A stretch of 64,000 nt of DNA, from the NCBI GenBank assembly GCA_037447435.1, contig JBBIGR010000028.1, positions 1 through 64,000 on the forward strand, read 5' to 3'. The DNA comes from Fibrobacteria bacterium. GTDB taxonomy: Bacteria; Fibrobacterota; Chitinivibrionia; Chitinivibrionales; FEN-1185. The notes under the pieces were generated by a model. The model worked only from the letters and a program-made list of their open reading frames with translations, was not told the origin of the DNA and searched no databases. A program made the position numbers and the translations under genes. Of the stretch, positions 5,232 to 29,244 are shown piece after piece (the first letter of the stretch is position 1; each line of letters opens with the position of its first letter).

Positions 5232-5275
5232 ATATTATCATATCATAAATAAATAAGCCTTTCCAGATACAAAAA
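5232..5275. repeat. Direct repeat copy C
   Basis: ATATTATCATATCATAAATAAATAAGCCTTTCCAGATACAAAAA, 3 mismatches to copy B. Confidence 0.9.
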
Positions 5276-5378
5276 GCAACTCCATAACAATGTCGTATTT
5301 TTTAGGAAGTTCGAAAAGATATTTTAATCGGGTGTGTAATTTGAAAAGATTCACCCTAAGAAATAATGGAGAGAGTTT

Positions 5379-6716: not shown

Positions 6717-6766
6717 GTATTACCTCTTTACCATCCCTGAAAAATGAACTTGTTTCGGCAAACCGT

Positions 6767-7510: not shown

Positions 7511-7533
7511 TATACGATATTCCTTTTATTTAG

Positions 7534-8835: not shown

Positions 8836-9137
8836 ACCCTGTACCGGGAAACAATGTCATGAAAGTATTAAAAGGCGAATAATTGCCTTTTCAAATTAAG
8901 GATATTCTAATATGCTTCGGACAAACTGGGGAAGATGCCGGTTCACAGATGCGGGATCAAACTTTTCTCGTTTTGAACATTGCCGTTATTTTAAATCAAT
9001 TATGACCGGCGGCTCATTGGAATGACAATGTACTATAATATGGTATATTTGATTTTTTCAAAGCAAACAAATAATTAAAGAATTTTGTTTGGCGAATTTT
9101 GCCCGACAGCAGGAATCCCTCGGCATTCCGCATATTT

Positions 9138-10238: not shown

Positions 10239-10351
10239 CTCGATTAAAATAGGATATGGCTCGGCAATCCGGGACGTCGTTGGGAAGCTCCTTAAAATTG
10301 TACCATTATCAATGTACATTTTCAGGAGAATATTGCGGTTATAAAAAAAAA

Positions 10352-11026: not shown

Positions 11027-11035
11027 AGTTGGTCC

Positions 11036-13483
11036 TTATTTGGGCATGACGACGCGTTGCGTGACAAACACGGAGCTACTTTTGGAAACGCCTGCCCATT
11101 TTAGTATATAAACGCCCGACGGAACAAAGCAGGAAAATTGCTGCGCAAGCATGTCGCCGTTTGTCCGCTTTTTTACAAAAGATGAAACAACGCATTTTCC
11201 CTGTACGTCGAACACCGACATCCGATAGTTTACCATATCTGAAATGTTACGAAGCGACACGCACAGCATCCGGTTTTTAACCGTATACGTCAACTTCGGC
11301 TGCACAATTTCCGTTTTTACCAACGCTTTCCTAAAATACGAATCGAGCTGGTCCGAAGTCCCGGCTGCAAGTAAAATCCCGGCATTGCCGGCTTCCACCG
11401 GGAAATTGTCATTGATTACAACATATCCTTCGCCTTGCTTTTGCATCAATCGACATTCGATATTTTTATTCCCGTACAATAAGGCGGCACGCACTGTCAC
11501 CGAAAGCGGACCGCTGCTTTGATTGTCTATTTCCAGGGGAAACAGCGCGGGTTGTTGCCCATATGCCGGATAAATCGATATCGATCCTTTTTTGCCGAGA
11601 TCCGGATTTTTGATCAGAACCGTTGCGGATGAAAAGGAAGGAGGCGCCGGATACAAAACAGGGTTTTTTATGCTGCTGTTCGTTCCGCAATACGCGGTTC
11701 CCAGTTCTTTCTTGCCGCTTGTCGCCGTAATTTTTATGCAATAGCCGTCGGATGCTTTTGTTTTGACAAGTCCGTTTGTCGCGCTTTGGTTCTGCATCGA
11801 AAGGGGTATCGGCGGAAAGCGAAGCGACACTGCGGTGTCGAAGGGATTATATACCGTATAGCCGTTTCCATTTCCCGAATAAAGCGTATCGGTCAATGAG
11901 TCGTTTTCGATATTTTTACTTCCGTAAACAAGCGACGGATAATACGTGCGATGAAACGGATCGGCAACCCATCTGTACATAATCAGATTTTCGGCAGCCG
12001 GACCGGATGCGTTTATTACCGAGGCGCGCGGCATATCGAACCCGAACGGTATGGAAATATCGGTCCAATTTTTCGGCGATAGCGATATGGTAAAAGGGGC
12101 TTTCAACGAAACCGTCGTTCCTTTGCCGAAATCGATATTGGTCGGTTTCTCGGTTATCATCCAAAAAAGGGCGCCGGGACGGCACTGGAAAACCGAATCG
12201 CGCGATTTCGAATATTCGACCCATCCGTTTACATTTCCGGAATTTTCGGGAAGCCATTTGAAAATCCTGAATTTGCTTTGGTCGTACGACGAAGAAGTAT
12301 TGAAAACCGGTTGCAGGCATGAACTCATCGCATAATTTTCCGGAACGATCGTCGAACCGACGGGGACTATGGAATTCTCGGGCGTCATCATCGCGTCCGA
12401 ATGCGTTCTGGTTGCGCGGCGGGAAAGATTTATCGTGTCGGTTGTCGTACCGTCGGACACGATGCAAAATGCGCGCATACCTGCGGCCTGTGCTCCCCAC
12501 GCCGCAATCGTACCGGTTATCCTTCCCGATTTTCCGTCTATCGTTCCAGATGCGGCCGGTGAAGAAATGCTTTTTCCTCCCTGCGCGCAAAAATACGCGT
12601 AGGTAAGGTTTACGCCGTTATCGCTCACGTCGATCGTATCGCCGATCGGCACCGAATCGATGCACGTTGACGTATCCGAAACGACCCGCACGGTCGGCGC
12701 CACGGTATCCTCAAGGACGACATAGGGGAAAACGAAATCGCTTGTCTTGCAAACGATACGCTTATGGGCGCTGTCGAGCGCCGCATTTCGTTGCACGATC
12801 AAGGCGCCCAAAGAATCTTTATAAAGCCGGATTTTATTGAGCGACCCTGCAGGAATCGAATCATTGCATCGCAAAGCCATAAAAATCGCCGGAGACGGTT
12901 CGGGCAGTAAAAATCGTACGCCCGCGCCGCGTGAAATAAACCCGTTATGCGATTTTTCGGCAGGCATATACGACACGACCGTATCATTATGCGGAAAAAG
13001 TCCCAACGGATAATCGGAACCTTTCCACAATGCGAGCCTGCCTTCCAACGCTTTGACGGTATCGTTTTTTGTCGGAAGAAAAAACGATATCGGTTGTTTA
13101 TACGGCGACGAGACCGTCACTTTTGCCGTGGACAATGAGTCGGGTTTTATCCATACGCCTTGCCGCTTTGTCCACAAAGAAACGGTATATGCGGTATCGA
13201 ACGTCGCATCGGTAATCGCAAACGTCGTATCGCCGGAAAGCGCCGTGCAACGGAACATGGTCCGCGGCGTACTGATTGCGCCCGAAATAACCGTTGCGGT
13301 AATTCCCGCATACACTTCGTCGCTTAACACAATGGAATCGGCAACCCACGAAAGATCGACGGTAAGGTTTTTCCGGTCGAAACCGCATTTCGTGATGCTC
13401 AGTTTCGATTCGCGATTGTCCGATAGTCCCGCATATACCATGGATGCGGATAGTATTGCAATGAACGCTGCGTTCCGTATCAT
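11036..13483 (-). CDS. Large secreted protein with T9SS/FlgD-like C-terminal sorting domain
   Basis: Signal peptide; tail SVFDVQGKCV...PSGVYILK; 4-bp overlap with upstream gene. Confidence 0.75.
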   Translation of the reverse strand: MIRNAAFIAILSASMVYAGLSDNRESKLSITKCGFDRKNLTVDLSWVADSIVLSDEVYAGITATVISGAISTPRTMFRCTALSGDTTFAITDATFDTAYTVSLWTKRQGVWIKPDSLSTAKVTVSSPYKQPISFFLPTKNDTVKALEGRLALWKGSDYPLGLFPHNDTVVSYMPAEKSHNGFISRGAGVRFLLPEPSPAIFMALRCNDSIPAGSLNKIRLYKDSLGALIVQRNAALDSAHKRIVCKTSDFVFPYVVLEDTVAPTVRVVSDTSTCIDSVPIGDTIDVSDNGVNLTYAYFCAQGGKSISSPAASGTIDGKSGRITGTIAAWGAQAAGMRAFCIVSDGTTTDTINLSRRATRTHSDAMMTPENSIVPVGSTIVPENYAMSSCLQPVFNTSSSYDQSKFRIFKWLPENSGNVNGWVEYSKSRDSVFQCRPGALFWMITEKPTNIDFGKGTTVSLKAPFTISLSPKNWTDISIPFGFDMPRASVINASGPAAENLIMYRWVADPFHRTYYPSLVYGSKNIENDSLTDTLYSGNGNGYTVYNPFDTAVSLRFPPIPLSMQNQSATNGLVKTKASDGYCIKITATSGKKELGTAYCGTNSSIKNPVLYPAPPSFSSATVLIKNPDLGKKGSISIYPAYGQQPALFPLEIDNQSSGPLSVTVRAALLYGNKNIECRLMQKQGEGYVVINDNFPVEAGNAGILLAAGTSDQLDSYFRKALVKTEIVQPKLTYTVKNRMLCVSLRNISDMVNYRMSVFDVQGKCVVSSFVKKRTNGDMLAQQFSCFVPSGVYILKWAGVSKSSSVFVTQRVVMPK

Positions 13484-16400
13484 CGTGTTATCCCGATCGT
13501 CGCTGTCAATAATTTCGATTCTTTATGGCCGTCGGTATTAATTATGAGCGTCAGAAGCGCCTGATAAATTCCGGGCGCGGCCATTCTCTTGCTTTTTGTA
13601 TAACCGTTCCAATACACCGTATAATCGTATACCGTTCCGTCCGAAGACCACGACGACGGCATGATATTGTCGTAGTTTTCGTTGTTCACCACACGCCCGC
13701 CTTTAATCAGATTTTTCCATTGATAATCGGTAACCGGGTCCGCGTTGACCGTATTGCCCACGGCATCGTAAATTTTTAAGCGTCCGCCGACCTGCACATC
13801 CGAACCTTTCGGCAGCAACATTTGGAACTTAATGATAAATCCCGCATGATCGCTTTGCACCCACTGCAATGCCGAAGGATTGTGACTCAAATGGAATTCC
13901 CCGGGTTGTTCATGGGCCGATGTCGCCATGCTCGGGTTCGGAGCGACGATCAGTTTGCTTTCCGGACTGCCTTTTAGAAATATTTTCACTTTTCTGTTGT
14001 TAAGATTCGGTGAATTTTGGGCCTTGTCGAAAACCTGGAATGAAAGCGAGTCGGCGCGGAACGATAGATAATGGGACGAAATCAATTCCTTTCCGTTGCT
14101 TGTTTTAAAACTCGCCCGGGAAAGTTCGGTCGGCGCATTGAGGGAATTTATTCCATCGAGCATGGTAAGGTTTTCAAACGTCCCGCTTTGGGTTTTAATC
14201 CATACGAGGAAAAGCTTTTCGGGCATTATGAAATAGGGGACGGAATTCCCGCTTTTATCGGTTATGGGCTCGCTAAATGTAACGGTTACGATGTCTTCCC
14301 GGTGATCGCCGCCCCTGATGTCCTTAACAACAGATAGAATGACCGGGCCGGCGCCGTCGGTTGCGGTTTGCGTAAACGAATCGACGGCCCCGCCGAGCGC
14401 AAACCCTTTATTGTCTAACGTGACCTCCGGTGTCCAATCGGTTTGAAGCGTGGAATCCGCTTGTTTTTTAAGATAAAGTTCGACGGTCTCGCTGTCCGGC
14501 GATACCGAAACGCTGTCTACCGGAAGAACGGTTCCTTCGAACGACACGCCGAAACGGGACGACAAAAACGAATCCCTTTTATAAACGGCCTTGCTGAAAC
14601 CGACCAGTATGCGTTCCAGTTTACCGTCGCCGTCGTCGTCTTTTGTAACCACGGAAACGACCATTGCCTGTGGCCCGACAATGAGCGTATGGAGCGAGCC
14701 TTTCACCGCGGTATCGGCCGCCGATATCGCGACGATAGCGCCTTCCTCGTCGTATTTTACCAGTTGTGAATCTGCCCCGTAAATTATCCTCGAAACCGGG
14801 GCGTAATTTGCGACCGGATGAAGGGTGCCCGTTGTTTTCCACGAGCACTTTTCTTCGCCGCGGACATTGCCGTATGCATCATAGCCCACCGAATACACGA
14901 GCGCACTTTCTTTCGGATATCGCAAAACAAGCGTATCGCGGCAGCAATAATTCGAATGCGCGATCCTGATCGTCGCGAGTGACGCGGGTTTGAGCGAAAA
15001 CGGTGCCGCGATGGCCGATATGCTCCCCAATTTGACGACTATGCTATGTAAACTATCTTTTGCAAACGGGGCATAATATAAAACCAATTCGATCGTGTCC
15101 GATCCGTTATGAAAGCATTGCGACAACCCGCCGCTTATCGGTGACGGAAGCGAAATGTCGGCCTGACCGCTTGCGCATAATACCTTGGGGATGAATTTAC
15201 CGTTTCCATACCCGAGCGAATCGATGTATGCTACCGGCGGTAACGACGTCCCTTTACCGTAACAATAGTCGCCCGGTACGAGCCCGTCTTTATTGTAAAT
15301 TCTCACCACGGCTTTTAATTTTTGACCCGCTATACAGTTTTCGTCCACGGTAAGCATGCTGAATTCCGCATGGACCGGATCGCCGACGGTGATGATGGTT
15401 TTTACCGTATCGGCAAGCGTGTCCTTTCCCGCGAACAGCGCCGTGACGGTGCCTTTCCCCGGGCGAATGGGTGAAAATTTATACATTGCCGAATTGTCCG
15501 GCGTCTTTATCAGGCTGTCCGATGTTTTCCAATGCGCCGAAATAGAGACCCAGTCTTTTGAATCGGATCGCAGACCTTGCGCACCGAGAATGGTGTCGTC
15601 ATTGGTCGACATTGTAATGGAATCTATCGCCGCATTGCCCGCCACTATGCGCACGGCCGTATAATGATAGGGCAGCAATTTTACATATGCCGTATCCGGC
15701 ACTAATTTTCCTACGGTATCGCGCACGACAATCCGGCATGTTCCCTGTGAAACGGCCAAATTTTTTTGGATTATTCCTTCCCCCGGAAAAGCCCCCCGGC
15801 TAATAGACACGATGGAATCTGGGCAAACCCATTGCAGGCTTCGCGCGGTATCGACAAAGTTTCCCAACGAATCCCTGACAAGCGCCCATGCTTCTTCGGA
15901 TACGCGGTCGTCAGGTATTTCCAATGTGTCTATTTCATTGGGACCGTACGGAGATCGCTGCCAATCTGCGGAGGTTTCAATATGCAACCCATACGGTTTA
16001 CCGGGCAATACGGATATCGCGAGCGTATCGGATAAATTTTGGAATGCAACGCGAACGCTCACCTTTCGCCGGGCGCGTTGGGGAAAAAAGGTCGTCGAAC
16101 TGCCGGAGTATTTGTCAAGATGCCCAGCGGAATCGCCCGACGCAACCGATGCCGAATCGTCGGAAAGCGTCCAGCTAAAACCGCTTTGGCTCAGTGTTTT
16201 GATCGGATAGTTATGCGCGTCGAATACTCTGGCAAAAAGGGCCAGCGGGCTTCCGGCCAATACCGTCGTATCGGAAGAAAATGCCGTACCTTTTTCCGTA
16301 TAGCACAATACCGACACCGGCGCTCCCGGAACAACCGTGAGCGGCAGGCTTTTCTTCAGAGTTCCTTGATAAATTATAGACACCGTTCCGCTTCCCGTGT

Positions 16401-17991
16401 CGCTGGGGCAAAATCCGACCGAATCGCCCGGAATAGTCCTGCTAAAATTCCACGGGCTCGATTGCCATTGCGTTTTAACCCGTTCCCAAACGTTATTATC
16501 TACCCTTTGACCCATGGCTACAAACGAAGTGCATTGGTCCATGGTAAGTTTGCAGGCGCTGACCGGCACCGGGGCGTTATTGACAAAGACGCAAAACCGC
16601 AGGTCTTTGTAGTCTGCCGCGACCACGTTCACGGTTACCGTGTCCCGCAACGTATCGGCCCCTGTCGCGGCCGAGGCAATCACCAATATGCTGCCGCTGC
16701 CGCTCACCTTCTTAACGATTCCCTCTCCCTTAGCAACATTGCCCGAAACGACTTTTGCGACCCCGGCCTTCATATTCGGCCGGGAAGAGTGAGAAGAAGT
16801 ATCCCAGCCGACCGATGCGGGAAATCCTGCGAAATTTCCCAAACTGTCCCGGAAGAACGCATATAACGACCGGGACGTATCGTTGGAAGGAATCTGTTCC
16901 AACGTATCCTGAACCATTTGATGCAACCTGAAACCGGGGGAAGCGGTATCGGCACGCGATTCAATGGAAACGACATACGGCTTTCCCGGATCGACATATA
17001 TCGTTTTGTTTACTCGAAGCGTATCGCCTTTTGCAACATTGGGAAATGATGCGGCAACGGTAAATTTTTCAAATGCGGTGCGGGCCGCAAACACAACGGA
17101 ATCTTTTCGACCCGGGATTTTTATCAGGCTGTCGTTTAATACCGCATTTCCGGAACATGTCCACCGCACGAGGGAATCAAATTGCGGACTTCTTACTTGT
17201 ATACCCGCGGAATCCGACCACACTTCCGCTTTATAATGGACAAAATCCCCTGCAAGCGCGGTATCCGCGCCGTTTGCGCGTATCGATCCGTTTTTTACGA
17301 CAACAAGCGAATCGGGTATCGGTTCTACGTTCAAGTCCAAACCCGTGACCCGGAAAATGACGTCGTTAAAATCAAAATCGGAAACCACCAGGGAATCGTG
17401 TCCCGGAATGATCGTATCGCCGCCGTCTTCGAACCCGAACACGATGGTATCATTTTGAGAATTTCCCAAAGCATCCAATCTTCCCGCAACGGCGAACCGA
17501 TGACCGTAGCCTGGGCGCAGCCCGAAATCCCTTGCGACAAAATTGGCATTCGGATACACCGTTTGGTTTTTCGGATCGACACCCGTCCGGTTCTGTCCGG
17601 TAAACCGGGAATATTTTCTTGCATCGCTTTTATATTTAAAAAAAATCTCGGTGCCCGGTGGAATATTGTGTAAATATTGCGTCACGTTAAAACGCGCGGA
17701 ATGTTGGCGGTTGGTAAAAAGCGCCAAACTGGAATCTTTGGTACCGGGAACCATTATGAACAGCGTTCCCGACGTGTCGGCATCCGAAGTATCCATGGTT
17801 ACAATGATCGAATCGTTGGGGTTTTGATAATAAAAGGAAGCCCCGACATACAATCGTGCATTGTCGGAAATATGCCATAAATCAACACGCGACGCGCTGT
17901 CCGGGCTAAAAAGCTCGGTTTGCGCAATAACGAGTCTGAAAAGCAGAATGGCAAAAAGTAAAATGAGATTCGGGCGAAACGTTTTTATCAT
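13480..17991 (-). CDS. 1503-aa secreted multi-Ig protein with DUF4114-like motif and FlgD-like tail
   Basis: Signal peptide; FGFED...DFDFNDVIF motif; repeated RDSLGNF units; tail APNP...IYDAVGN...WNG...APGIY. Confidence 0.75.
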   Translation of the reverse strand: MIKTFRPNLILLFAILLFRLVIAQTELFSPDSASRVDLWHISDNARLYVGASFYYQNPNDSIIVTMDTSDADTSGTLFIMVPGTKDSSLALFTNRQHSARFNVTQYLHNIPPGTEIFFKYKSDARKYSRFTGQNRTGVDPKNQTVYPNANFVARDFGLRPGYGHRFAVAGRLDALGNSQNDTIVFGFEDGGDTIIPGHDSLVVSDFDFNDVIFRVTGLDLNVEPIPDSLVVVKNGSIRANGADTALAGDFVHYKAEVWSDSAGIQVRSPQFDSLVRWTCSGNAVLNDSLIKIPGRKDSVVFAARTAFEKFTVAASFPNVAKGDTLRVNKTIYVDPGKPYVVSIESRADTASPGFRLHQMVQDTLEQIPSNDTSRSLYAFFRDSLGNFAGFPASVGWDTSSHSSRPNMKAGVAKVVSGNVAKGEGIVKKVSGSGSILVIASAATGADTLRDTVTVNVVAADYKDLRFCVFVNNAPVPVSACKLTMDQCTSFVAMGQRVDNNVWERVKTQWQSSPWNFSRTIPGDSVGFCPSDTGSGTVSIIYQGTLKKSLPLTVVPGAPVSVLCYTEKGTAFSSDTTVLAGSPLALFARVFDAHNYPIKTLSQSGFSWTLSDDSASVASGDSAGHLDKYSGSSTTFFPQRARRKVSVRVAFQNLSDTLAISVLPGKPYGLHIETSADWQRSPYGPNEIDTLEIPDDRVSEEAWALVRDSLGNFVDTARSLQWVCPDSIVSISRGAFPGEGIIQKNLAVSQGTCRIVVRDTVGKLVPDTAYVKLLPYHYTAVRIVAGNAAIDSITMSTNDDTILGAQGLRSDSKDWVSISAHWKTSDSLIKTPDNSAMYKFSPIRPGKGTVTALFAGKDTLADTVKTIITVGDPVHAEFSMLTVDENCIAGQKLKAVVRIYNKDGLVPGDYCYGKGTSLPPVAYIDSLGYGNGKFIPKVLCASGQADISLPSPISGGLSQCFHNGSDTIELVLYYAPFAKDSLHSIVVKLGSISAIAAPFSLKPASLATIRIAHSNYCCRDTLVLRYPKESALVYSVGYDAYGNVRGEEKCSWKTTGTLHPVANYAPVSRIIYGADSQLVKYDEEGAIVAISAADTAVKGSLHTLIVGPQAMVVSVVTKDDDGDGKLERILVGFSKAVYKRDSFLSSRFGVSFEGTVLPVDSVSVSPDSETVELYLKKQADSTLQTDWTPEVTLDNKGFALGGAVDSFTQTATDGAGPVILSVVKDIRGGDHREDIVTVTFSEPITDKSGNSVPYFIMPEKLFLVWIKTQSGTFENLTMLDGINSLNAPTELSRASFKTSNGKELISSHYLSFRADSLSFQVFDKAQNSPNLNNRKVKIFLKGSPESKLIVAPNPSMATSAHEQPGEFHLSHNPSALQWVQSDHAGFIIKFQMLLPKGSDVQVGGRLKIYDAVGNTVNADPVTDYQWKNLIKGGRVVNNENYDNIMPSSWSSDGTVYDYTVYWNGYTKSKRMAAPGIYQALLTLIINTDGHKESKLLTATIGITR

Positions 17992-18003
17992 GTGCTGTAA
18001 TTA

Positions 18004-18807
18004 CTATTTCCTTACAATAATAGGATACGATACGGTCTTTTGCCCCTGCATTATCGAAACGAAATACATGCCTGCGGCAACCGATTTAAGGGAAGCGGTC
18101 TTGGTTTGCGACGTTCCTTCGAAATGCCGTATTTCGTGCCCCGAAATATCGTATAGTATTGCTTTGCAATCGGCTTTGTCGCCTCGGAGGCAAAGCCGTA
18201 CTTCGCCGTTTTTATATTCTATTTTGTTCGCAATAACGGCATTCGCTTTTTTGTTGATTATTGCGCTTGCACCGGGATAAATCGCCGCTTCATGGAGGGG
18301 GCACGAGGTGTCGGCGATCAGAGAGCAATCTTCCACGATAACACCGAAGAGTCTGAGCTTCGTCGTATCTGTGGTCAGCTTTCGAAACGTAACGATACCC
18401 AAGCATCCGTCTCCGTCGACGCATTGCGATCCGTCGTCGCTGGTGAGGGAACCGCCCAGCAAAATTTTCGTCGAATCGTCACGCGACCGTTTTACGGAAT
18501 AAAAAATGGAGCCGCCGTTGGCCTCGAGGAAATTGGGGCGTGCGTCGTTTCCCTTTATCGATGAAACATATTTAAGCTTTGCGGTATCGTACGAAACATA
18601 TACCTGAAAATCATACAACTTTTTGGCATTGTGAAGTATTACTCCTACGGAAATAGTACTGTCTTTCTGACATATGCCTACCGAGTCGATGTTTGTCGTA
18701 CTGACACCGCAATCGACAAATAATTCCGCGGCCTTGTTTGGGCCTGCAAGCGAAACTCCGATCATTAATGCCGTTGCAAGAATGACCTTACCTATGGTTG
18801 AATTCAT
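18004..18807 (-). CDS. Cohesin-domain protein with T9SS-like C-terminal domain
   Basis: VGVILHNAKKLYDFQVYVSYDTAKLKY...DGDGCLGIVTF cohesin-like pattern; tail LYDISG...AAGMYFV. Confidence 0.7.
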   Translation of the reverse strand: MNSTIGKVILATALMIGVSLAGPNKAAELFVDCGVSTTNIDSVGICQKDSTISVGVILHNAKKLYDFQVYVSYDTAKLKYVSSIKGNDARPNFLEANGGSIFYSVKRSRDDSTKILLGGSLTSDDGSQCVDGDGCLGIVTFRKLTTDTTKLRLFGVIVEDCSLIADTSCPLHEAAIYPGASAIINKKANAVIANKIEYKNGEVRLCLRGDKADCKAILYDISGHEIRHFEGTSQTKTASLKSVAAGMYFVSIMQGQKTVSYPIIVRK

Positions 18808-18887
18808 TCCGTATTCTCCCGACCAGGGCGACCCTGATTAAAATTTGAAATAGGTGAATTGCTCTATTCATATGCATTTGTCTGCCG

Positions 18888-21800
18888 TTATTCTTTCAGT
18901 TCCCAACATTTGCTCGCACGACCGATGTCCCGGATATCGATTACTTCCCTTGTACCGTCCGAAATTTTCAAATTATACAACGGAATCCACGATGCGTCCC
19001 GGTCGGTAACTTCCCATAATTTCGATATTCGTCCGATGTCCCGGATATCCACAGTTCCGTCGCCGTTGACATCCCCGCAAAGATGCGTGGAAAATATCCG
19101 CAACAGGTTCCCTTTGACTATTGCGAGTTTCGGCTGGCCGAAAGGAGATCCCAGCAAGGCATAGCGTGCGGAATCGGTCGGGCAGCGCGCTCCCGCGCAA
19201 TTCAAATCGCTCACGTATTTCATTGTCGAACAGGAACTGTCGGTCGAAAATGATCTTAAATAGCCGCCATACGACATGATCCATGCATACGAACCGGTTT
19301 GGTCCATATCTATAAGCATCGGCGGCCCTTTAAACTGTTTGAGCGAGTTACCGAGCGAATCGGTGATCTCATGCGGAGTACCGAGAATCGGCAGGGAATC
19401 CGATCCGATATTCGGATAAACAAAAATCCCGATGCCTTCGGAATGTATCACCAAATCCTTTTTGCCGTCGCGGTTGACATCCATTACAAGCGGATACGGT
19501 TTATTTCCCGTAACCGCGCATAACGTTTCCGCAACCGCGTACCTGCCTTGATCGGGTTTCAAAAGAACTATTTTCCCGTTAGACAACGATGCGATGCAGG
19601 AATACCCGCCCGACGTATACCAATCGGTAAATACATGGCCGACGGGGTTAACAAGAGGCGTTCGGACTTCCGCCGAATCGTTCGCGCGCGAAACAAACCC
19701 GCTGTCCGAACCGGTATTGAATCCGAAACAGGTTTTAAACCCGGTTTGCGAAATGACCGACAAATCCTGTCGGCCGTCTCCATTAACATCTGCAAAAGTG
19801 AACTGGCCCGCGGTTGCGGACGAGACCGCGGTATCGACCGTAAAGGAATCCGGCACGGTGAACATGAGCGGTATCGCCGGCTTTAAGGTAACGACGTGGG
19901 AATATATCGAATCCGCCTTTATTTCATATGCCATGCGCTGGGACCTGAAGCCGTTTGCGGCGACTTCAAACCAATAGGTTCCCGGCCGGGCAGTGTACCG
20001 AACCGAATCGGTGCCCAAAAATGTTCCGGGGAAATTCATCGACGGCATACCGTAAATTCGGGCCGTCGACGGTTGCACCTTTACTATGACAGTACCGAAT
20101 TTATTTACGGACAAAATGACGGTACGGCTTGCCGTGGCATATCCGTTTGTCGCATAAAACGTGATCGGATACGAGCCGGTATCGTACGTCACCTGCCAGC
20201 CGAACTCGCCTGTTCCGTCGTTATTCACTTTAAAGGTATAGCCCGGTAATTCGCACGATACCGAGAGCATCGGGATTGTCCCGTTGCAAGGATCGGTTGC
20301 CGTTACCGGAATGCGGACCATATCGCCGAGGGCTGCGCTTTTATCGGGTATGGGCGAAAGTATCGGCGGGAAATTGACTGCGCGAACATCGATGCCGACC
20401 GAAATCGTGTCGCTGAGAAAATGATCCGTGGCCCCTGCACGCAATGTCAATCGCCCGAACGCGTCGCATTTGGGTCTCCAGTAAAAAGTTCCCGTGCCGT
20501 TTCCGTTGTCGACAAATCGGACTCCGGATGGCGCATTGACCGCGAATAATTCGGGAATCGTGCCGTCGGGGTCCTTTGCTTCAACGGTAAGGGCCAAATC
20601 GGTGTTTTGATAGATTACCGTATCGGAATGCGGTAAAAATTTGGGTCCCGTGACATTTTTGTTTTCGACTTTTACGCTGACGGTATCGCTCGTCTGCCAG
20701 GCGGAATTCGTGATATTGCTTGCGGTGATAATAAAAGTAAACGTTCCGGAATCGTGCGGAGTCCATGAAAACAATCCGTTCCCCGCGTTATCGTTAACAA
20801 AGCTCGCTCCCTTCAGCAGCGAGGTCGCGGAAAGTACCGGAACCGTCCCGTCCTGCACCGTCGAACGGGCTAAAACTATCAAAGGCAAATTGATGCCCAC
20901 GGACGTGTCTCGTGCCGAAACAATAAGTGTTGGGGCAAAAAACTGTTTCGGGTCTTGCACCGTAATTATTATGGTATCGCGGACCGCGGTCATATCGTCT
21001 TTGGCCTCGAATATTACCATATAATATCCGGCGTCTTTTTCCTGCGGGGTCCAGATAAGCGTCCCGGTTCCGTCCCCGTTGTCTCTGAACTGCGCGCCCG
21101 GCGGCAAGTTAATCGCCCGCACCTTAGGCGCAGGTCCGTTATCGCAATCTTCCGAATGCACCGTTATGAAAAGCGGCATTTGAAACCAGGCGGTCGTGTC
21201 GTTGGTTTTTGTCAAAACGGGCGGGAAATCAACATCGGTCACCGTGAGATTGATTTGCGTAATTGCCGAATCCATACCGTCGAACACTTTTGCTTTTATA
21301 GAATATGCCCCGTGATCGTTGCAGCCGGTGTTCCATAAAAGTATTGCTTTGCCGTTACCGCTGTCGACGATCGATGCACCGGCAGGTAAAACGTTTGCGG
21401 CGGAAATATGCAAAGCGTTTCCGTCGGGGTCCGATGCGCTTATCGGCAATCGTAAGACGTCTTTTTCCTTTATTGTCGTGTCCGAAACCGCCGTTATCTG
21501 CGGAATACGGTTTTGAACCACGGTTACCTTTTGAATGCCGCTGTCGCAATTCCCGTTATTGTCGCACGCTTTCCACTTTACATTAGTAATACCGACCCGA
21601 TACGCGGAATCCAGAGACAAACCGTCGTCCCGCGATGCGCCGATACTCGACGCGGAACAACTGTCGTATGCCGTTGCGGAAGTCAACGTGACAAAACTAT
21701 TGCTGTTTGCCGCGGCTATTATCACGGTCGTGTCTTTACCGCGCGTAATTCTCGGCGGCGTTACGTCCCTGACAATAACATTTTGATCCTGCGTCGATAC

Positions 21801-24800
21801 ATTGCCGTGGTTGTCGTCGTATTTCCAATGGACGGTGTAATTTCCCTGGGCGGAATAAGAAATCGGATCGGTCGTCGAACCGGTTATCAATCCGGCACAG
21901 TTGTCCGTCGCAGTCGGGCGGGAAAGATTTACCGCGCAAGAACCTTGTATCGTCGGCAAAGCGGAAAGGGAAGGTACCGGCGCGATAGTGTCTTTTATTG
22001 TAACGGATTGGACCTGGGAAACGGTATTGCCACTCGCATCGGTAAATGCCCAATGTACCGTAAAATTGCCTTGCGAATTATACGTCAGAGGATCCGCTGT
22101 CGTACCGACAATCGTCGCTAGGCAATTATCGGTTGTTGTCGGAGGAGACAGCGTTACCGAACATTGCGCTTTAATTGCCGGCAGGGTCGGAACCTGCGGA
22201 GGCGTATTATCCACGATCGATACGATTGCCGTATCGCGACCGATTCCGCCTCGTGAATCGGTTACGGTAAGAATGGCATTGTATCTGCCGACGGGAAGCG
22301 TTACCGTTTGATTTGCTCCGCTCAATGTACCGGCGAACGGTCCTGTCCAAGAATACGTGAGCGCGTCGCCGTCCGCATCGGTGCCCGATCCCGCAAGCGA
22401 GACCGTTGCGTTACAACCGCTTCCTACATTGGCCGACAGGTCGGGGCCCGCATTTGCCGACGGAGCATGATTGCTGCAAATTAAAACCGCGGTTTCGCCC
22501 GATTGCGGACTTCTGCCCGAGACACCGACATTATCGATTGCTCGTATGTAATAGCCGGCGCCACCCGCGGTGATATACGCGGCGCCGATTGTCGATCGGT
22601 ACGTATTTGCGGCAATTATCGCCATGGTATCTACATTGTAAAAAGCGTCGTTGCTTTTTTTATAGTAAAGAATTGCCTTTCGTACGCCGTCGCCGTCGGT
22701 AATCGTTGCGGTTATCGGCACTGCCGTGCCGATGGGCGTACATGCCGGAGACGTCGCAACAATGAGCGGCGCCTCATTGCCCACGGGAATTACCCACGGC
22801 TGTAAATCCGGAGACAGAATATTCGGCGATCGACCGATCAAATGATAATTGTCGGTTGCAAGTATGTAAAAGTCTATTCCCGGGTAATAAACGTCCGATG
22901 CCGGGATAACGGCCTGGTATACGGTTCCGGAAGTCAACGTCATGGGTATTTCGGTATAGGCGCCAACCGACGAGTTTGACCGTCGATAAAAAAGCCGCAC
23001 TCCGGACACCGATCCGTCGTCCGTGACCGAGGCTTGTATGGTAAGGGGAATGCTTGCCGTTTGATTTACCCCTAATTTCGCCGCTGTTGCAGGCGTCAAT
23101 GTTATGACGGGAGGATGATTGTTTTCGTTCCAGTGCGCGGTGTCCCTGCTCGTGCGGGAATTCAATGTGGTGGAAACGACCACGGTGTGCGTATCGCCGT
23201 TAAAAACAACGTCGGGCGACCGGTAACAAAGGATATATTGCGCTTCGACATCGTGTTTTATCTGTGCGTAAATCCGCGCCAAATCGCCTGCGGCAGGCGC
23301 ATAAGAATAATATCCTCCCGTGCTGTCGGCAAGGCTTTTTAAAAGCACCGAATCCACCCCGGAACCGATGCCGATGCAGTATAACGCAACGCCGTTTTGC
23401 CGCGCGTAACGTATCAGGCTGTCTTTTAATGAAGGCGTGTTGCAAACACCGTCGGTAAATAGAATTACCGCTTTGGAATTAGTTTCCGGAATTAGTTGAG
23501 CAATGGCGGGAAAGGTTGCCTCGAGCAGCGGGGTGCCCGAACCGTTCGGAATATGGCTGAGTGCATAATTGAGCAGCGTCGTATCGTTTGTCATCGACTG
23601 GTAAACCGCCCCCGAATCGTACGAAGCTCCGCCGAACGACACTATTGCGCAGCGGTCGAAAATGTCCATCGTTTTCACATATTCTTTTGCGCTGTTGCAG
23701 GCGTCTATCAACGGTTGCGGTTGCATCGACCCGCTATTATCGATCAATAAGGTCACCGAAGTCGCTTGGACATTGGTAATCGACGTCAGTTGAAAGGGGA
23801 CCGTCGCCCCGTCCTGTGTCACCGTAAACTCACTTGAATCAAGACCGGTTATACTTCTACCCGCCGTATCGGTGACCGAAGCCGTAATGCAAATATCCGG
23901 ATGCCCCGAAATATTGACATCGACGATTCTCGTTCGCGGCTTTGTTAAGGGATTCAAAATATAATTAGGCGTAATTTTGGCTTTTACGCCGCCCGATACG
24001 GCCACCCTCGTTGAAACGTTATTCGGGGTCGCGATGGTCGCGCTCCCTTGTGTCAATGACCATGAAGTGAATAAATAACCCCCGTTTGCGCTCGCGGTAA
24101 CGCTGGTATCATGTCCCGACAAAATAAACACCGTGTCCTTGGGGACGGTAAACCCGTACGACGACCGCGCTATAATCAGCGTATCGTGCGGATAGGAATT
24201 GAATACCGCCCGAATCGTAGCGTCGCCCGTGGCCATTGTGACGGTTGTTGCGGAGGAAGTCGTATTTGCAATTGTTGCGCTTCCGCTTACGAGTTCCCAT
24301 CTTGAAAAGTAATAGATCGGGTTTTTCGGCGTCGCTGTGATCGAAACCGTCGCATTTGGAATTTCGGGATTTGAACCCTTCGGGGTAGTTGTTCCATAGC
24401 CGTTGTTGATAACCGTGAGTGTTGGCGTGGTGGCGTAATGGATGGCGAAATTATTCGACCAATATGACGATGAAAGCGGAACAACCATGAAATAATAGGT
24501 TATTCCCGCCGTCGCGGAAATCATATATGTCAATGTTCCCGAACCGTATTGCGAGACGGGGGTTCCGCTGAATGCGGAATTCGTTCCATAGTAATAAAGG
24601 TACTTGTATGAACCGGCGGAAACATCCGAAACCACAAACGCATAACTTCCGCTTGCGGGAGCGGTAAAGCTAAAAGCAACGCCGCCGCTCGGCGAAATAC
24701 CGGCGTAATAATTTGTCGTAAAATTATAGGTTATATCGGTGCTTGATATCGGATTGATAGTTCCTGCGGTAAAATTCGCCTGTATCGCGGCGTCGGCAGT

Positions 24801-27800
24801 GATCGAAGCCGACGTAGAATAACTCGTCGGGCTAACTATCGTTGCCGTTCCGTTGGTCACGGTCCAATTATTAAATCGGTACCCTGCATTCGGCGTCGCG
24901 GTTATTGTCTGGGAAACGCCCGATATCATCGCGGTATTCCCCGACGGCGTAGTGGTTCCATGACCGTCGTTCGAAACCACAAGCGTCGGAATCGTCATAT
25001 ATCGAATGGAAAAATTATTTGACCAATACGACGATGAAGTAGGAATAACTTTAAAGTAATACGTCACTCCCGCCGTGGCGGAGAGAGGAAAGGTCAAAGT
25101 CCCCGCTCCATAACGATAATCCAAATAGCTGCCGAAGCCTGTACTTGTCCCATAATAATAAAGATATTTGGTTGACGACAGGGCCCCGTCCGATACGACA
25201 ACGGCATAACTGCCTGTTGACGGCGCCGTAAAACTGAATGCCGCACCGCCCGAGGGGTCTACGCCGGAATAATAGTTCGAGGTGAAATTGTAAGAGACAT
25301 CGCTGGCGGTTATGGCATTTATTACGCCGGCGGAAAAATTTGCCTGGATGGTGGCGTTCCCGTTCAGGGTAACCGTTGTCGAATAGCTTGTTGAATTCGC
25401 AATAGTTGCGGAACCGCTCGGAATTGTCCAATTATTGAATTTATAGCCAATGCTTGGCGTTGCGGATATGCTTTGCGCCACTCCGGCAACGACCGCAGTA
25501 TTGCCTGTTGGAGATGTTGTTCCGTGCCCATCATTCAAAACGGAAAGGGTTGGCGCGGGAGTTTGCCTAATTGTAAAACTGTTCGACCAGTAGGAAGAAG
25601 AGTACGGTGAAACAATGAAATAGTAGGTTGTAGCCGCAGTGGTAGTAAATATATACGTCATTGTCCCGCTACCGTATGTGTAACCGGAATAGCTGGCGAA
25701 TGTGGAATTCGTTCCGTAGTTGAATAAATATTTGGTTGACGTAGCAGACACATCGGATATGACCAGCGCATAACTTCCCGCTGCCGGGACGGTGACGCTG
25801 AACGCAACGCCGCCCGACGGATCGTTTCCCGTATAATAATGAGTTGTAAAATTATAGGCGGAGTCTGTCCCGGTAATTTGATGCACGATTCCCGTCGTAA
25901 AATTTGCTTGAATCGTAGCGTTTGCGTTTAAAATAACGGTTGTTGAGTAAAGAGAAGGATTGGCAATCGTCGCGCTTCCGCTCACCACCGACCAGTTATT
26001 GAAACGATACCCGCTGTTGGATGTGGCGGTTATTGTTTGCGCGACGCCCGGTGCAACTATCGTACTTCCCGTCGGGCTCGTTGAACCATGGCCGTCATTT
26101 GTCATCGATAACGTCGGCGCAACCGCCTGATGCACGGAAAAATTATTTGACCAATAAGAACTGCCGTCCGCTATAACCTTAAAGTAATAGGTTGCCGGCG
26201 CGGCTACGGTAAGCAGATACGTTAATGTTCCTGTTCCGTACCGGTAGTCGACAGTACTGCTAAAGGTCGAACTGGTGCCATAATTGTAAAGATACTTATA
26301 CGAAGTGGTTGAAACGTCTGTAACAACAATTGCATACGTTCCTGCAGCCGGTAGTGTTATGCTCAGGGCAACGCCGGTCGAAGGATCGTTCCCCGAATAA
26401 TAATGCGTTGTAAAATTGTAGGTCGAATCGAAGCCGGTTACAGTATGGATGATTCCCGGATTAAAGGTTGCCTGTACGGTCGCATCCGCAGATACGGTGG
26501 CCGTTGTCGAATAGCTTGTCGGTGAAGCGATCGTAGCGTTTCCGTTTGTCACTATCCAGTTGTTGAACCGGTAGCCGGCATTCGAAGATGCGGTAATCGT
26601 TTGGGCAACACCCGACACCACCGCAGTTGCCCCGGAGGGAGTCGTGGTGCCGTTGCCATTGTTTGTTACCGTTAATGTCGGCGTCGAGTTTTGCCGGATG
26701 GAAAAATTATTCGGCCAATAGGCTGAGTTTGCGGGTACAATTTTAAAATAATACGTTTGCCCCGCAGTTGCGGAAAAAGCGCAAGTCAAGGTCCCTGCTC
26801 CGTATTGCGACGCAAGGGCGCTGGAAAAGGTGGAACTTGTTCCATAACTGTAAAGGTATTTGTATGATGCCGAAACGTCGGAAACAACTATCGCACAACT
26901 GCCCGAAGAAGCGGCATAATAGCTAAAAGCAACTCCGCCCGACGGATCGTACCCCGAATAATAATTCGTTGTAAAATTATACGTCGCATCGCTGCCGGTA
27001 ACGGTATAAATTGTTCCGGCCGAAAAATTGGCCTGAATTGTCGCGTTCGACGTCAGGGTGGCCGTTGTTGAATAACTTGATGGGCCGGCAATACTCGCAC
27101 TGCCGCCCGCGACGGTCCAATTGACAAAACGATATCCGGTACTTGGTGATGCAACGATTGATTGCGGAACACCCGAAACGACGGGAGTGCTTCCTGTCGG
27201 CGATGTCGTTCCGCTGCCGCTGCTCGACATGGTAAGCGTCGGCGTGGACGATTGCCTAATTGTAAAGTTATTCGACCAATAGGAAGAAGAATAAGGTACT
27301 ACTTTAAAGTAGTATGTCGCCGCTGTTGTGGTAGTGAACAAATACGTTATGGTGCCGGATCCGTACTGCGAGCCGAGTAGAGACGAGAATGAACTGTTCG
27401 TACCGTAACAGTATAAATATTTGGTTGAAGAAATAGACACATCCGAAACCGTGATGGCATAACTTCCGGCCCCGGGAATGGCACAGCTGAACGCCACGCC
27501 TCCCGTTGGATCGTAGCCTGTATAGAAATTGGTCGTAAAATTGTACGTCGCATCGCTGCCGGTAATTCCATAAATTGTTCCGGCCGAAAAATTGGCCTGA
27601 ATTGTCGCATTCGACGTCAGGGTTGCCGTTGTTGAATAACTTGATGGACCGGCAATGCTCGCACTGCCGCTGGTGACGGTCCAACCGTTGAATCGATTTC
27701 CGGTACTTGGTGATGCAACGATTGATTGCGGAACACCCGAAACGACGGGAGTGCTTCCTGTCGGCGATGTCGTTCCGCTGCCGCTGCTCGACATGGTAAG

Positions 27801-28940
27801 CGTCGGCGTAGATGATTGTCGAATGGTAAAGTTATTTGTCCAATAAGAACTGCCGTTCGGTACGACCTTGAAATAATAGGTCGTTCCTCCGACGGCGGTA
27901 AACGCATACGTCAAAACGCCGCTGCCGTACTGTGATCCCGCAATACTGCTAAAGGTCGAGCCGGTCCCGTAATAATAAAGATATTTATACGATGCGAGGC
28001 TGGGGTCGCCGATCGTTATGGCATAACTTCCGGATGTTGAAGGCGTAAAACTAAAAGCGACGCCGCCCGACGGGTCCACGCCGGTATAATAATTGGTCGT
28101 AAAATTGTATGATACGTCGCTGCCGGAAATGGTATTAATTTGTCCCGGAGTAAAATTAGCCTGAACAGTCGCATTGGAATGCAATGTTGCCGTTGTCGAA
28201 TAATTTGAAGAATTCGCTATTGTCGGACTACCGCTTGTTATTGTCCAATTTGCGAAACGATATCCCAAGGTTGGTGTTGCCGTTATTGTTTGAGCGATGC
28301 CGGTATCAACAGGAATAAGGCCGGTCGGTACGGAAGTTCCGCCCGTTCCTGCATTTACGGTCAACGAACATTGCACGGGATGATAAATCTTTATATTATC
28401 GACATACCAACCGGGATTAACAACGCTCACATCACTGGTTAAAGTGAATCGAAGCCGAATTGAAGAATTACGATACGTACTCAAACTATACTTTTCTTGA
28501 GTCCAAACCGTATTTGAACTGCCGGTGGAAAAAAGTTGATTCCAAACTCCGCTGGCATTTTGTTCAATTTCTAAAATTATTCTATCACAGCATGATTCCA
28601 ACTGATACCAATCTGTATACATAAGCCTGATCGTATCGACATTCGGCAAGGTAATTGACGGAGTAACCATTTGATAATTGGCGTTGTTAGCATAACTTCC
28701 ATTTAATATTGTCCCCGCACACTTTGTCCCTTCGGGCACGGTATTTGGCGTTACGGTCGGCGTACCGAATTCCCATCCTCCTCCGGTAACCGTCATTGAA
28801 GACGTTCCTTCAAAATTCTCGGAATAATATACCGATTGAGCCATGACGGATGAAAACAGTACACCTATAAGAATCACCAGCCCGAAACAATTTCGAGTTG
28901 TTTTCAGTGAAAACGAGGCTGTTTTTCTTGCCATTGTCAC
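18888..28940 (-). CDS. Giant (3350 aa) repetitive adhesin-like protein: N-terminal jelly-roll, tandem two-domain repeats, vWA, PKD/HYR/cadherin-like Ig, FG-GAP, C-terminal dockerin
   Basis: Signal peptide; GWYVDNI; vWA MIDAS LLIDNSGSM...LFTDG; NHAPSANAGPD; DVNGDGRQDL; terminal GDVNGDGTVDIRDIG...VIDIRDIG. Confidence 0.85.
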   Translation of the reverse strand: MTMARKTASFSLKTTRNCFGLVILIGVLFSSVMAQSVYYSENFEGTSSMTVTGGGWEFGTPTVTPNTVPEGTKCAGTILNGSYANNANYQMVTPSITLPNVDTIRLMYTDWYQLESCCDRIILEIEQNASGVWNQLFSTGSSNTVWTQEKYSLSTYRNSSIRLRFTLTSDVSVVNPGWYVDNIKIYHPVQCSLTVNAGTGGTSVPTGLIPVDTGIAQTITATPTLGYRFANWTITSGSPTIANSSNYSTTATLHSNATVQANFTPGQINTISGSDVSYNFTTNYYTGVDPSGGVAFSFTPSTSGSYAITIGDPSLASYKYLYYYGTGSTFSSIAGSQYGSGVLTYAFTAVGGTTYYFKVVPNGSSYWTNNFTIRQSSTPTLTMSSSGSGTTSPTGSTPVVSGVPQSIVASPSTGNRFNGWTVTSGSASIAGPSSYSTTATLTSNATIQANFSAGTIYGITGSDATYNFTTNFYTGYDPTGGVAFSCAIPGAGSYAITVSDVSISSTKYLYCYGTNSSFSSLLGSQYGSGTITYLFTTTTAATYYFKVVPYSSSYWSNNFTIRQSSTPTLTMSSSGSGTTSPTGSTPVVSGVPQSIVASPSTGYRFVNWTVAGGSASIAGPSSYSTTATLTSNATIQANFSAGTIYTVTGSDATYNFTTNYYSGYDPSGGVAFSYYAASSGSCAIVVSDVSASYKYLYSYGTSSTFSSALASQYGAGTLTCAFSATAGQTYYFKIVPANSAYWPNNFSIRQNSTPTLTVTNNGNGTTTPSGATAVVSGVAQTITASSNAGYRFNNWIVTNGNATIASPTSYSTTATVSADATVQATFNPGIIHTVTGFDSTYNFTTHYYSGNDPSTGVALSITLPAAGTYAIVVTDVSTTSYKYLYNYGTSSTFSSTVDYRYGTGTLTYLLTVAAPATYYFKVIADGSSYWSNNFSVHQAVAPTLSMTNDGHGSTSPTGSTIVAPGVAQTITATSNSGYRFNNWSVVSGSATIANPSLYSTTVILNANATIQANFTTGIVHQITGTDSAYNFTTHYYTGNDPSGGVAFSVTVPAAGSYALVISDVSATSTKYLFNYGTNSTFASYSGYTYGSGTMTYIFTTTAATTYYFIVSPYSSSYWSNSFTIRQTPAPTLSVLNDGHGTTSPTGNTAVVAGVAQSISATPSIGYKFNNWTIPSGSATIANSTSYSTTVTLNGNATIQANFSAGVINAITASDVSYNFTSNYYSGVDPSGGAAFSFTAPSTGSYAVVVSDGALSSTKYLYYYGTSTGFGSYLDYRYGAGTLTFPLSATAGVTYYFKVIPTSSSYWSNNFSIRYMTIPTLVVSNDGHGTTTPSGNTAMISGVSQTITATPNAGYRFNNWTVTNGTATIVSPTSYSTSASITADAAIQANFTAGTINPISSTDITYNFTTNYYAGISPSGGVAFSFTAPASGSYAFVVSDVSAGSYKYLYYYGTNSAFSGTPVSQYGSGTLTYMISATAGITYYFMVVPLSSSYWSNNFAIHYATTPTLTVINNGYGTTTPKGSNPEIPNATVSITATPKNPIYYFSRWELVSGSATIANTTSSATTVTMATGDATIRAVFNSYPHDTLIIARSSYGFTVPKDTVFILSGHDTSVTASANGGYLFTSWSLTQGSATIATPNNVSTRVAVSGGVKAKITPNYILNPLTKPRTRIVDVNISGHPDICITASVTDTAGRSITGLDSSEFTVTQDGATVPFQLTSITNVQATSVTLLIDNSGSMQPQPLIDACNSAKEYVKTMDIFDRCAIVSFGGASYDSGAVYQSMTNDTTLLNYALSHIPNGSGTPLLEATFPAIAQLIPETNSKAVILFTDGVCNTPSLKDSLIRYARQNGVALYCIGIGSGVDSVLLKSLADSTGGYYSYAPAAGDLARIYAQIKHDVEAQYILCYRSPDVVFNGDTHTVVVSTTLNSRTSRDTAHWNENNHPPVITLTPATAAKLGVNQTASIPLTIQASVTDDGSVSGVRLFYRRSNSSVGAYTEIPMTLTSGTVYQAVIPASDVYYPGIDFYILATDNYHLIGRSPNILSPDLQPWVIPVGNEAPLIVATSPACTPIGTAVPITATITDGDGVRKAILYYKKSNDAFYNVDTMAIIAANTYRSTIGAAYITAGGAGYYIRAIDNVGVSGRSPQSGETAVLICSNHAPSANAGPDLSANVGSGCNATVSLAGSGTDADGDALTYSWTGPFAGTLSGANQTVTLPVGRYNAILTVTDSRGGIGRDTAIVSIVDNTPPQVPTLPAIKAQCSVTLSPPTTTDNCLATIVGTTADPLTYNSQGNFTVHWAFTDASGNTVSQVQSVTIKDTIAPVPSLSALPTIQGSCAVNLSRPTATDNCAGLITGSTTDPISYSAQGNYTVHWKYDDNHGNVSTQDQNVIVRDVTPPRITRGKDTTVIIAAANSNSFVTLTSATAYDSCSASSIGASRDDGLSLDSAYRVGITNVKWKACDNNGNCDSGIQKVTVVQNRIPQITAVSDTTIKEKDVLRLPISASDPDGNALHISAANVLPAGASIVDSGNGKAILLWNTGCNDHGAYSIKAKVFDGMDSAITQINLTVTDVDFPPVLTKTNDTTAWFQMPLFITVHSEDCDNGPAPKVRAINLPPGAQFRDNGDGTGTLIWTPQEKDAGYYMVIFEAKDDMTAVRDTIIITVQDPKQFFAPTLIVSARDTSVGINLPLIVLARSTVQDGTVPVLSATSLLKGASFVNDNAGNGLFSWTPHDSGTFTFIITASNITNSAWQTSDTVSVKVENKNVTGPKFLPHSDTVIYQNTDLALTVEAKDPDGTIPELFAVNAPSGVRFVDNGNGTGTFYWRPKCDAFGRLTLRAGATDHFLSDTISVGIDVRAVNFPPILSPIPDKSAALGDMVRIPVTATDPCNGTIPMLSVSCELPGYTFKVNNDGTGEFGWQVTYDTGSYPITFYATNGYATASRTVILSVNKFGTVIVKVQPSTARIYGMPSMNFPGTFLGTDSVRYTARPGTYWFEVAANGFRSQRMAYEIKADSIYSHVVTLKPAIPLMFTVPDSFTVDTAVSSATAGQFTFADVNGDGRQDLSVISQTGFKTCFGFNTGSDSGFVSRANDSAEVRTPLVNPVGHVFTDWYTSGGYSCIASLSNGKIVLLKPDQGRYAVAETLCAVTGNKPYPLVMDVNRDGKKDLVIHSEGIGIFVYPNIGSDSLPILGTPHEITDSLGNSLKQFKGPPMLIDMDQTGSYAWIMSYGGYLRSFSTDSSCSTMKYVSDLNCAGARCPTDSARYALLGSPFGQPKLAIVKGNLLRIFSTHLCGDVNGDGTVDIRDIGRISKLWEVTDRDASWIPLYNLKISDGTREVIDIRDIGRASKCWELKE
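24425..28375 (-). repeat. Seven intragenic tandem repeats of about 188 aa / 564 bp
   Basis: Each unit is an InlB-B/Flg_new-like module (GYRF..W...ANF) plus a PPC-like module (YNFTT.YY.G.DP.GGVAF...TYYFKV). Confidence 0.9.
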
Positions 28941-29244
28941 GCGTTCCGCCTTTTTTTAGGTTCTCCAAGGCACTTTACTTTATCGTTATTTCGGCAAACA
29001 ATATATATAACGGATTTTTTTTGTCAATGTTTATATTGTAATAATTGATTATCAAGTCTCGCCAATATGTGAAGTTAGTAGCATATGTATCCGATTTGTC
29101 TTATCGAACCTCGACATGAGGTAAAAGTACCGGTTAATTTAATAGGATTGCGAGGAAAAAAAGCGACAAAATTGTCGTTTTTTTAAAAAAAACAAGTTTT
29201 TATACGGTTTTTATGGAAAAATTTCTATACTTTGCATAAAAATA

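Follow-up and report, generated by a model that had tools for sequence, protein, structure and literature searches.

Gene organization of the locus

The window analyzed here is a stretch of 64,000 nucleotides on contig C28 (JBBIGR010000028.1) of the genome of an uncultured, Gram-negative Fibrobacteria bacterium (5.05 Mb, 99.6% completeness; GCA_037447435.1, designated G000). It contains a block of four closely spaced genes on the minus strand, encoding proteins of 3350, 267, 1503 and 815 amino acids (aa) and separated, in this order, by 80 base pairs (bp), 12 bp and a 4-bp overlap. The first gene (18888..28940) encodes a giant secreted protein that ends in a dockerin (18891..19094). The second (18004..18807) encodes a small adaptor consisting of a signal peptide, a single cohesin (18328..18744) and a type A C-terminal sorting domain (18007..18231) of the secretion system known as type IX (T9SS). 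It is very probable that this cohesin and this dockerin bind each other. Beyond binding, we tentatively favor, at somewhat less than an even chance, that the giant docks on the cohesin in the periplasm, is co-exported by the T9SS and is tethered to the surface through the cohesin. The locus has a GC content of 50.1%, compared with 45.6% for the genome. Among the sequencing runs listed as containing this DNA, none is of RNA. A contig from a DNA sequencing run spans positions 17000-19182, including the gene junction, with zero differences; this run may be the window's own source.

The giant starts with a likely Sec signal peptide (28839..28940), judged by eye, which ends ...SSVMA before a Gln. 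It is followed by a MAM-like domain (28362..28835, approximate boundaries; InhA-like_MAM, E 7e-6, slightly below the cut-off) and a Thr/Ser-rich stalk (23961..28361) of seven repeats of ~188 aa. Each repeat carries an InlB B-repeat-like (Flg_new_2) domain and two extra copies are present, which accounts for the nine Flg_new_2 matches of the domain scan. The stalk leads to a vWA domain (23277..23756; E 6e-11), in which DNSGS (23727-23741) represents the DxSxS motif; a Thr and an Asp are candidates for the remaining residues of the DxSxS...T...D pattern of a putative metal-ion adhesion site (MIDAS). HYR, cadherin-like and Ig-like stalk domains (20121..22463, approximate boundaries) precede a small PEGA-like domain (19875..20108), a region of FG-GAP repeats that appears propeller-like (19095..19823) and the dockerin. 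The giant would most likely work as an adhesin. The sequence-only reading, an earlier interpretation of this DNA, had called it non-catalytic, which fits the protein of the window; in the family, however, subtilase or GDSL domains are found on many proteins.

Sequence and fold of the dockerin and cohesin

The C-terminus of the giant reads GDVNGDGTVDIRDIG...EVIDIRDIG...WELKE, as had been described, but of the duplicated calcium-loop motif proposed for it only the first copy is canonical. Loop 1 (19038-19073) has the expected form, whereas loop 2 (18927-18974) is elongated to 16 residues instead of 12 and lacks the Asp/Asn at position 3. The two helices are near-identical (10 of 13 residues). 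Profile searches with hidden Markov models, which the sequence-only reading had suggested, placed all three expected domains above their cut-offs, the dockerin and cohesin barely so. Pfam Dockerin_1 matched the giant with 23.4 bits (cut-off 22.9), covering the first repeat only, and Pfam Cohesin matched residues 38-89 of the 267-aa protein with 24.2 bits (cut-off 24.1). The T9SS tail of the same protein was recognized by TIGR04183 with 26.7 bits (cut-off 23), and its signal peptide was judged from the sequence. The prediction of a cohesin with a secretion tail in the gene 80 bp downstream was thus borne out.

Because the Pfam scores of the cohesin and dockerin sit at the cut-offs, both modules were examined further. 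Family alignments comprising 28 dockerins and 37 cohesins were obtained from related loci. The cohesin model reached a predicted local distance difference test (pLDDT) score of 89.9 and has nine strand elements. A Foldseek search with this model returned cohesin-containing entries in all 40 rows listed, with the best E-value of 3.5e-9 for 2XDH and with archaeal and type I entries on top, in agreement with the fold that had been expected. The dockerin model (pLDDT 91.7) has two helices. In the Foldseek result for this model, type II dockerin entries fill the first 11 rows, all with E-values above 0.001. In a structural comparison with VIA dockerins occupied the top 16 of 27 rows, and the best match, Clostridium perfringens 2OZN_B, lies within 1 Z of 2Y3N and had a Z-score of 7.9 (root-mean-square deviation 1.9, 55 aligned residues), which is under the tool's caution level of Z 8. 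Compared with PDB sequences, the dockerin family profile matched the type II dockerin 2Y3N_B best (E 3e-6, positions 4-70), and the 15 best matches of the cohesin family profile are type II cohesins, led by ScaB cohesins (E 5e-14). The assignment to type II is not firm, because the best structural matches are the non-cellulosomal 2XDH and 2OZN. The predicted structures settle that the 267-aa protein has a beta-sandwich cohesin fold and that the giant terminates in a dockerin fold. The possibility of a chance EF-hand-like motif was rejected in view of the folds and the family context. Only one other protein was obtained when homologues were searched from word seeds.

A constant cassette precedes the dockerin

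A homologous region of ~340 aa was located directly before the dockerin in all 45 proteins with at least 300 upstream residues (leave-one-out E below 1e-57); the remaining four of the 49 dockerin proteins were too short to be included. The dockerin is therefore part of a terminal cassette of ~410 aa with the order PEGA/FG-GAP/dockerin. All 22 aligned members share FG-GAP repeats after a PEGA-like start, with distant matches to PDB entries of the integrin-propeller type. The name PEGA is tentative, because the Pfam PEGA family matches only two of the 22. The FG-GAP region, previously assigned to the adhesin cargo, belongs to this constant docking cassette instead. Within G000 the full pre-dockerin region was found on the giant alone. 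A search of 1.84 billion representative sequences with the 410-aa cassette yielded 30 matches at E-values up to 1e-30. Among 153 proteins matched in the sequence library, 25 of the 28 with the full pre-dockerin region also contain a dockerin, and the dockerin is C-terminal in 45 of 47 dockerin-positive matches, i.e. in the usual position of a tail.

The proteins ahead of the cassette are diverse. The 35 of 49 dockerin proteins that were scanned for cargo domains contain subtilase (10), GDSL esterase (6), IgGFc-binding (3), vWA (2) and other esterase or S9 domains (2). No catalytic glycoside hydrolase (GH) family was detected among these 35 cargoes, the only related modules being the non-catalytic GH115_C or CBM35-like ones.

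Distribution within Fibrobacterota

The family profiles were used to search 296 genomes of the phylum. Dockerins and cohesins were each detected in 29 genomes, of which 27 contain both; related genomes are not independent samples in these counts. For 32 of 54 dockerins a cohesin is encoded on the same strand no more than 400 nucleotides downstream, in 25 genomes, and 48 of 54 cohesins have a dockerin within 10 kb. The conservation of the gene pair that had been anticipated was thus found, although some circularity is built into this adjacency count, as the loci from which the profiles derive were found by their cohesins. For 26 dockerin matches outside the profile, a hand count gave a cohesin directly downstream in seven cases, within 10 kb in 13 and none on the contig in 13. 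When metagenomes were scanned with only the dockerin as seed, a cohesin was located directly downstream in six of ten loci, or in four of seven when three near-copies of genome loci were left aside.

The pair is spread over five families besides that of the host, in several locus layouts. Neither profile matched any of the seven other genomes of the host's family, and none of the 151 genomes of the largest family of the phylum (f13, judging by its size probably Fibrobacteraceae) was positive for dockerin or cohesin. The order of the four genes is retained in seven further genomes, and three more show it in interrupted or split form; it is in these ten that the 815-aa protein has its top non-self matches. 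In the trees both modules of the window cluster with sequences of family f5, and this grouping, together with the GC content of the locus, would fit transfer or patchy loss. The sequence-only reading had taken Fibrobacter as its point of reference. It is improbable that the host belongs to Fibrobacter itself: the closest dockerins come from nine named records labeled Chitinispirillaceae bacterium (3), Fibrobacter sp. (4) and Fibrobacteres bacterium (2), all of them metagenome-assembled genomes and the latter two labels loosely applied. This narrow dockerin scan of the sequence collections reaches close relatives only. Family f20 includes a genome (81% complete) that encodes a tail-less cohesin (L083:9899-10408, +) but gave no match to the dockerin profile.

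Cohesin classes and shared sockets

A tree was calculated for 48 cohesins, together with a quick version for the cassettes. Of these cohesins, 29 are followed by a C-terminal extension and 14 are not, whereas five are N-terminal modules of proteins that themselves end with the cassette. A self-built profile of the type A tail, seeded from some of the members, matched 17 of 50 cohesin-positive proteins. Several of the dockerin classes are each paired with a distinct clade of cohesins. When these tree-derived classes were used to compare the two dockerin helices, agreement at 4.9 of ten variable positions was obtained both within the same protein and between class mates, versus 1.5 of ten across classes; family f17 lacks this effect. 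A dual binding mode is established for clostridial dockerins (e.g. PDB 2VN5), and symmetry of the helices is what such a mode would maintain.

The typical gene order in families f3 and f8 is cargo, adaptor, tail-less cohesin and tailed cohesin. Six cassette genes have no cohesin in the 2.9-8 kb downstream of them, while the respective genomes encode one elsewhere, which suggests that sockets are shared. In one first-class locus the giant is separated from its cohesin by a block of a second class (L037:5705-13104), composed of a tail-less cohesin, a tailed cohesin and a subtilase cargo, and the junction at L081 is similar.

Sorting tails and the export machinery

The giant was matched neither by TIGR04183 or PF18962 nor by two self-built tail profiles, in accordance with the absence of a T9SS or FlgD-like tail that had been noted before. 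The same two profiles matched none of the 50 dockerin-positive proteins. In G000 at least 146 type A tails were detected. SprA and PorU scored above their cut-offs, and a PorV-like gene was borderline (28.1, cut-off 27). The search for PorP/SprF matched nowhere, controls included. Passages of PMC9251779 describe the T9SS as moving folded, very large substrates and as needing the folded C-terminal domain of the substrate itself. According to parts of PMC11611037, PorU removes the tail and the substrates are then anchored or released. A T9SS-type tail has been proposed in passages of PMC6851124 for enzymes of Fibrobacter succinogenes.

G000 also encodes a 686-aa protein (L003:586-2646, -; contig C17) that unites LamG, cohesin, dockerin and T9SS tail in one chain. 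The genome can accordingly fuse a dockerin to a tail. As a further partner class this protein was rejected, since it misses both family profiles. On contig C48 two adjacent open reading frames (2541-9110 and 9302-13684, -) encode large proteins whose C-termini are near-identical and on which no T9SS tail was detected; FG-GAP-like repeats are present in the first. They are possibly a further case of tail-independent export.

Proposed mechanism and alternatives

Under the favored interpretation the giant and the cohesin protein would enter the periplasm by the Sec pathway and fold there, and the Ca2+-loaded dockerin would dock on the cohesin. The tail of the cohesin protein would then engage the SprA/PorV translocon, the complex would be exported, and PorU would anchor the cohesin at the cell surface. 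The giant would hang by its C-terminus with the vWA domain and the repeat stalk pointing outward. The cassette would thus represent a portable export-and-anchor tag, so that one socket gene could serve several cargo genes. A generalization that is plausible but held more loosely is a hitchhiker branch of the T9SS. In such a branch the cassette would replace the sorting tail on giants, small tailed cohesins, divided into several specificity classes that exclude one another, would be dedicated to export and anchoring, and chains would arise where cohesin-to-dockerin adaptors extend the assembly. Should a tail borne by the cohesin be able to take along a giant that is bound non-covalently, tail-based secretome predictions would miss a class of surface proteins and the T9SS would gain a plug-in display adaptor; the pair is small and occurs in several natural classes.

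Several observations weigh against this interpretation, beginning with those that concern binding. Loop 2 is non-canonical, with 15-19 residues, in all 43 dockerins that were parsed (five of 48 were not), and loop 1 meets the strict 12-residue pattern in 17 of 48. Seventeen identical nucleotides are common to both dockerin repeats of the window, and conversion at the DNA level could also yield the symmetry of the helices. The circularity and relatedness that affect the genome counts belong here as well. The degenerate calcium loops and borderline Pfam scores, together with the conservation of a third and fourth gene alongside that contain neither module, would be expected if the modules no longer bind and are co-inherited neighbors in a surface-gene block, or if the dockerin-like end serves another function such as calcium-dependent folding. 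This explanation is rather improbable, as the two modules share 27 of their 29 genomes each and occur in five further families and several layouts, and as the helix motifs are class-specific.

A second set of observations concerns export. No published case of a tail-less protein exported as a T9SS passenger was found in the literature searched, and some further large proteins of G000 appear to be secreted with no tail detected on them. The genome also encodes three secretins; therefore, an alternative export route exists. The main rival to co-export accepts the same docking and anchoring but proposes that the giant crosses the outer membrane independently, through a secretin system or because the cassette is an unrecognized export signal, and is captured outside. 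The invariant make-up and strictly terminal position of the cassette resemble a sorting signal, and cohesins of families f8 and f17 lack a recognized tail. Known cellulosomes likewise assemble by capture after export, when enzymes bind to anchoring scaffoldins. We nevertheless regard independent export as unlikely, if a serious contender: folding of both partners should precede export and take place in the same periplasm, so that a pair of high affinity would likely meet there, and the locus shows no link to a separate route.

The tails themselves provide a third set. Fourteen of the 48 cohesins have no tail at all, and the tails of tailed cohesins in families f3, f8 and f17 (8 rows) were missed by the self-built tail profile. 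The tail-less cohesins, together with the five adaptors that combine an N-terminal cohesin with a C-terminal cassette, could link several giants into a released or chained extracellular assembly, with the tail merely being removed at export. Some T9SS substrates are indeed released instead of anchored, as stated in passages of PMC11611037. However, G000 possesses a single cassette gene and a single cohesin of the family, and therefore no chain can form in this genome; the PorU sortase is also present. An assembly of this type is improbable for the window. Alternatively, the pair could act within the envelope, where the cohesin would cap the dockerin or serve it as a periplasmic chaperone and would play no part in displaying the giant. 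Tail-less cohesins with a signal peptide only would be periplasmic by default, and tail-less enzymes of Cytophaga are predicted to be periplasmic (passages of PMC11611037). This role is very unlikely for the cohesin of the window, which carries a T9SS tail above the cut-off. A 3350-aa repeat stalk with a vWA domain is, moreover, typical of surface proteins.

Comparison with known cohesin-dockerin systems

A cellulosome was considered and rejected, as neither a multi-cohesin protein nor a cellulase cargo is present. No multi-cohesin scaffoldin was detected: every match of the cohesin profile in the related loci is single-domain, and by Pfam G000 contains two single cohesins. The pair would act like a single-cohesin anchoring scaffoldin and is not a cellulosome. 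In the cellulosomes of Gram-positive bacteria, single-cohesin anchoring proteins are held by wall-binding modules. Clostridium thermocellum SdbA with its type II X-dockerin (PDB 2B59/2BM3) and the type II pair of Bacteroides cellulosolvens (PDB 2Y3N) similarly consist of one cohesin with a surface anchor that binds a C-terminal dockerin, and they provide the nearest sequence matches for both modules and the nearest Foldseek matches for the dockerin. They differ in being Gram-positive systems that serve cellulases, whereas here the anchor is a T9SS tail, the 35 scanned cargoes include no catalytic GH and an FG-GAP region takes the place of the X module. The best structural matches, C. perfringens NagJ/NagH (2OZN; Z 7.9 for the dockerin with 2OZN_B) and the Archaeoglobus fulgidus cohesin (2XDH; E 3.5e-9 for the cohesin), are not linked to a T9SS, and we know of no shared terminal cassette in either system.

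The general idea that a tail-bearing cohesin holds dockerin proteins in a diderm bacterium has already been published as a genome-based proposal for Ca. Stygibacter of the Cloacimonadota (PMC8542988). As presented in passages of that paper, proteins with signal peptides and C-terminal dockerins, including an S8 peptidase, are combined with a cohesin protein whose C-terminal sorting domain would provide surface attachment, which corresponds to the dockerin-ended secreted proteins and tail-bearing cohesin protein described here. The cohesin protein of Ca. Stygibacter is, however, a multi-cohesin scaffoldin of 3755 aa with carbohydrate-binding modules, in contrast to the single cohesin of ~260 aa encoded beside its cargo gene. 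In addition, every cargo in our set has the PEGA/FG-GAP unit before the dockerin, and co-export is absent from the passages of PMC8542988 considered. The planctosome hypothesis, inferred from genomes of diderm Planctomycetes, likewise comprises an anchor, an adaptor with dockerin and cohesin, and a peptidase cargo; in the parts of PMC6461901 considered, the anchor is a lamin-tail domain instead of a T9SS tail, and domain order and phylum are different. In the ESM Atlas, small proteins with a cohesin and a T9SS or FlgD tail are widespread and form unnamed clusters, with scores of 0.93-0.96, in Bacteroidota, phages, Eisenbacteria, Krumholzibacteriota and Zixibacteria. These have the same two-domain layout as the 267-aa protein, but their labels are automatic and they are leads rather than alignments.

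Passages of a paper on Chitinispirillales isolates mention dockerins for its Firmicutes strains only (PMC11700989), and the main text of PMC11557425 mentions neither Fibrobacter nor Gram-negative bacteria nor the T9SS. A full-text search found no paper that treats dockerin, cohesin and FG-GAP together, and no description of the cassette or of its occurrence in Fibrobacterota was found in the literature searched, which covers subscription journals sparsely and contains no supplements. What sets the system apart from known non-cellulosomal cohesin-dockerin display is its terminal cassette, which is obligate, together with its specificity classes and its occurrence in Fibrobacterota.

Neighboring genes and other features of the window

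The third gene of the block (13480..17991, -) encodes the conserved 1503-aa secreted protein, whose tail is like that of other large secreted proteins of G000 according to a self-built profile; this is the tail that we take to be FlgD-like. The fourth (11036..13483, -) encodes a secreted 815-aa protein with a T9SS tail, which is conserved as well. Family profiles for cohesin and dockerin match neither, and both proteins were rejected as hidden carriers of these modules. The 815-aa protein is the stand-alone form of a region of ~600 aa that is covered by no Pfam family and has matches in 65 of the order's 81 genomes, for the most part inside much longer frames. It looks like an uncharacterized module of large secreted proteins.

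The best sigma-70-like match of the region, TTGACA-16-TATATT (29000..29027, -; 11 of 12 positions), is positioned 60 bp upstream of the giant and is a match to the consensus only. Directly upstream of the giant, a gene at 29451-33683 (-) encodes a TPR-rich protein of 1410 aa without an evident signal peptide; it is not located beside the locus in relatives. The region downstream of the locus (1-8835) is possibly a mobile or defense island, with a low GC content (35-43%), a gene encoding a helix-turn-helix domain and an IrrE/M78-like peptidase (3041-4255), and a KAP-family NTPase (7534-8835). A GH99/GH71-like protein is encoded at 56407-58398 (-), and its weak match to a T9SS tail is internal (residues 127-182) and not C-terminal. 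The segments 42912-45601 (+) and 53801-56392 (+) encode the type VI secretion components TssF and TssG and an ATPase resembling ClpB/ClpV, with pyrimidine-synthesis and other genes between them.

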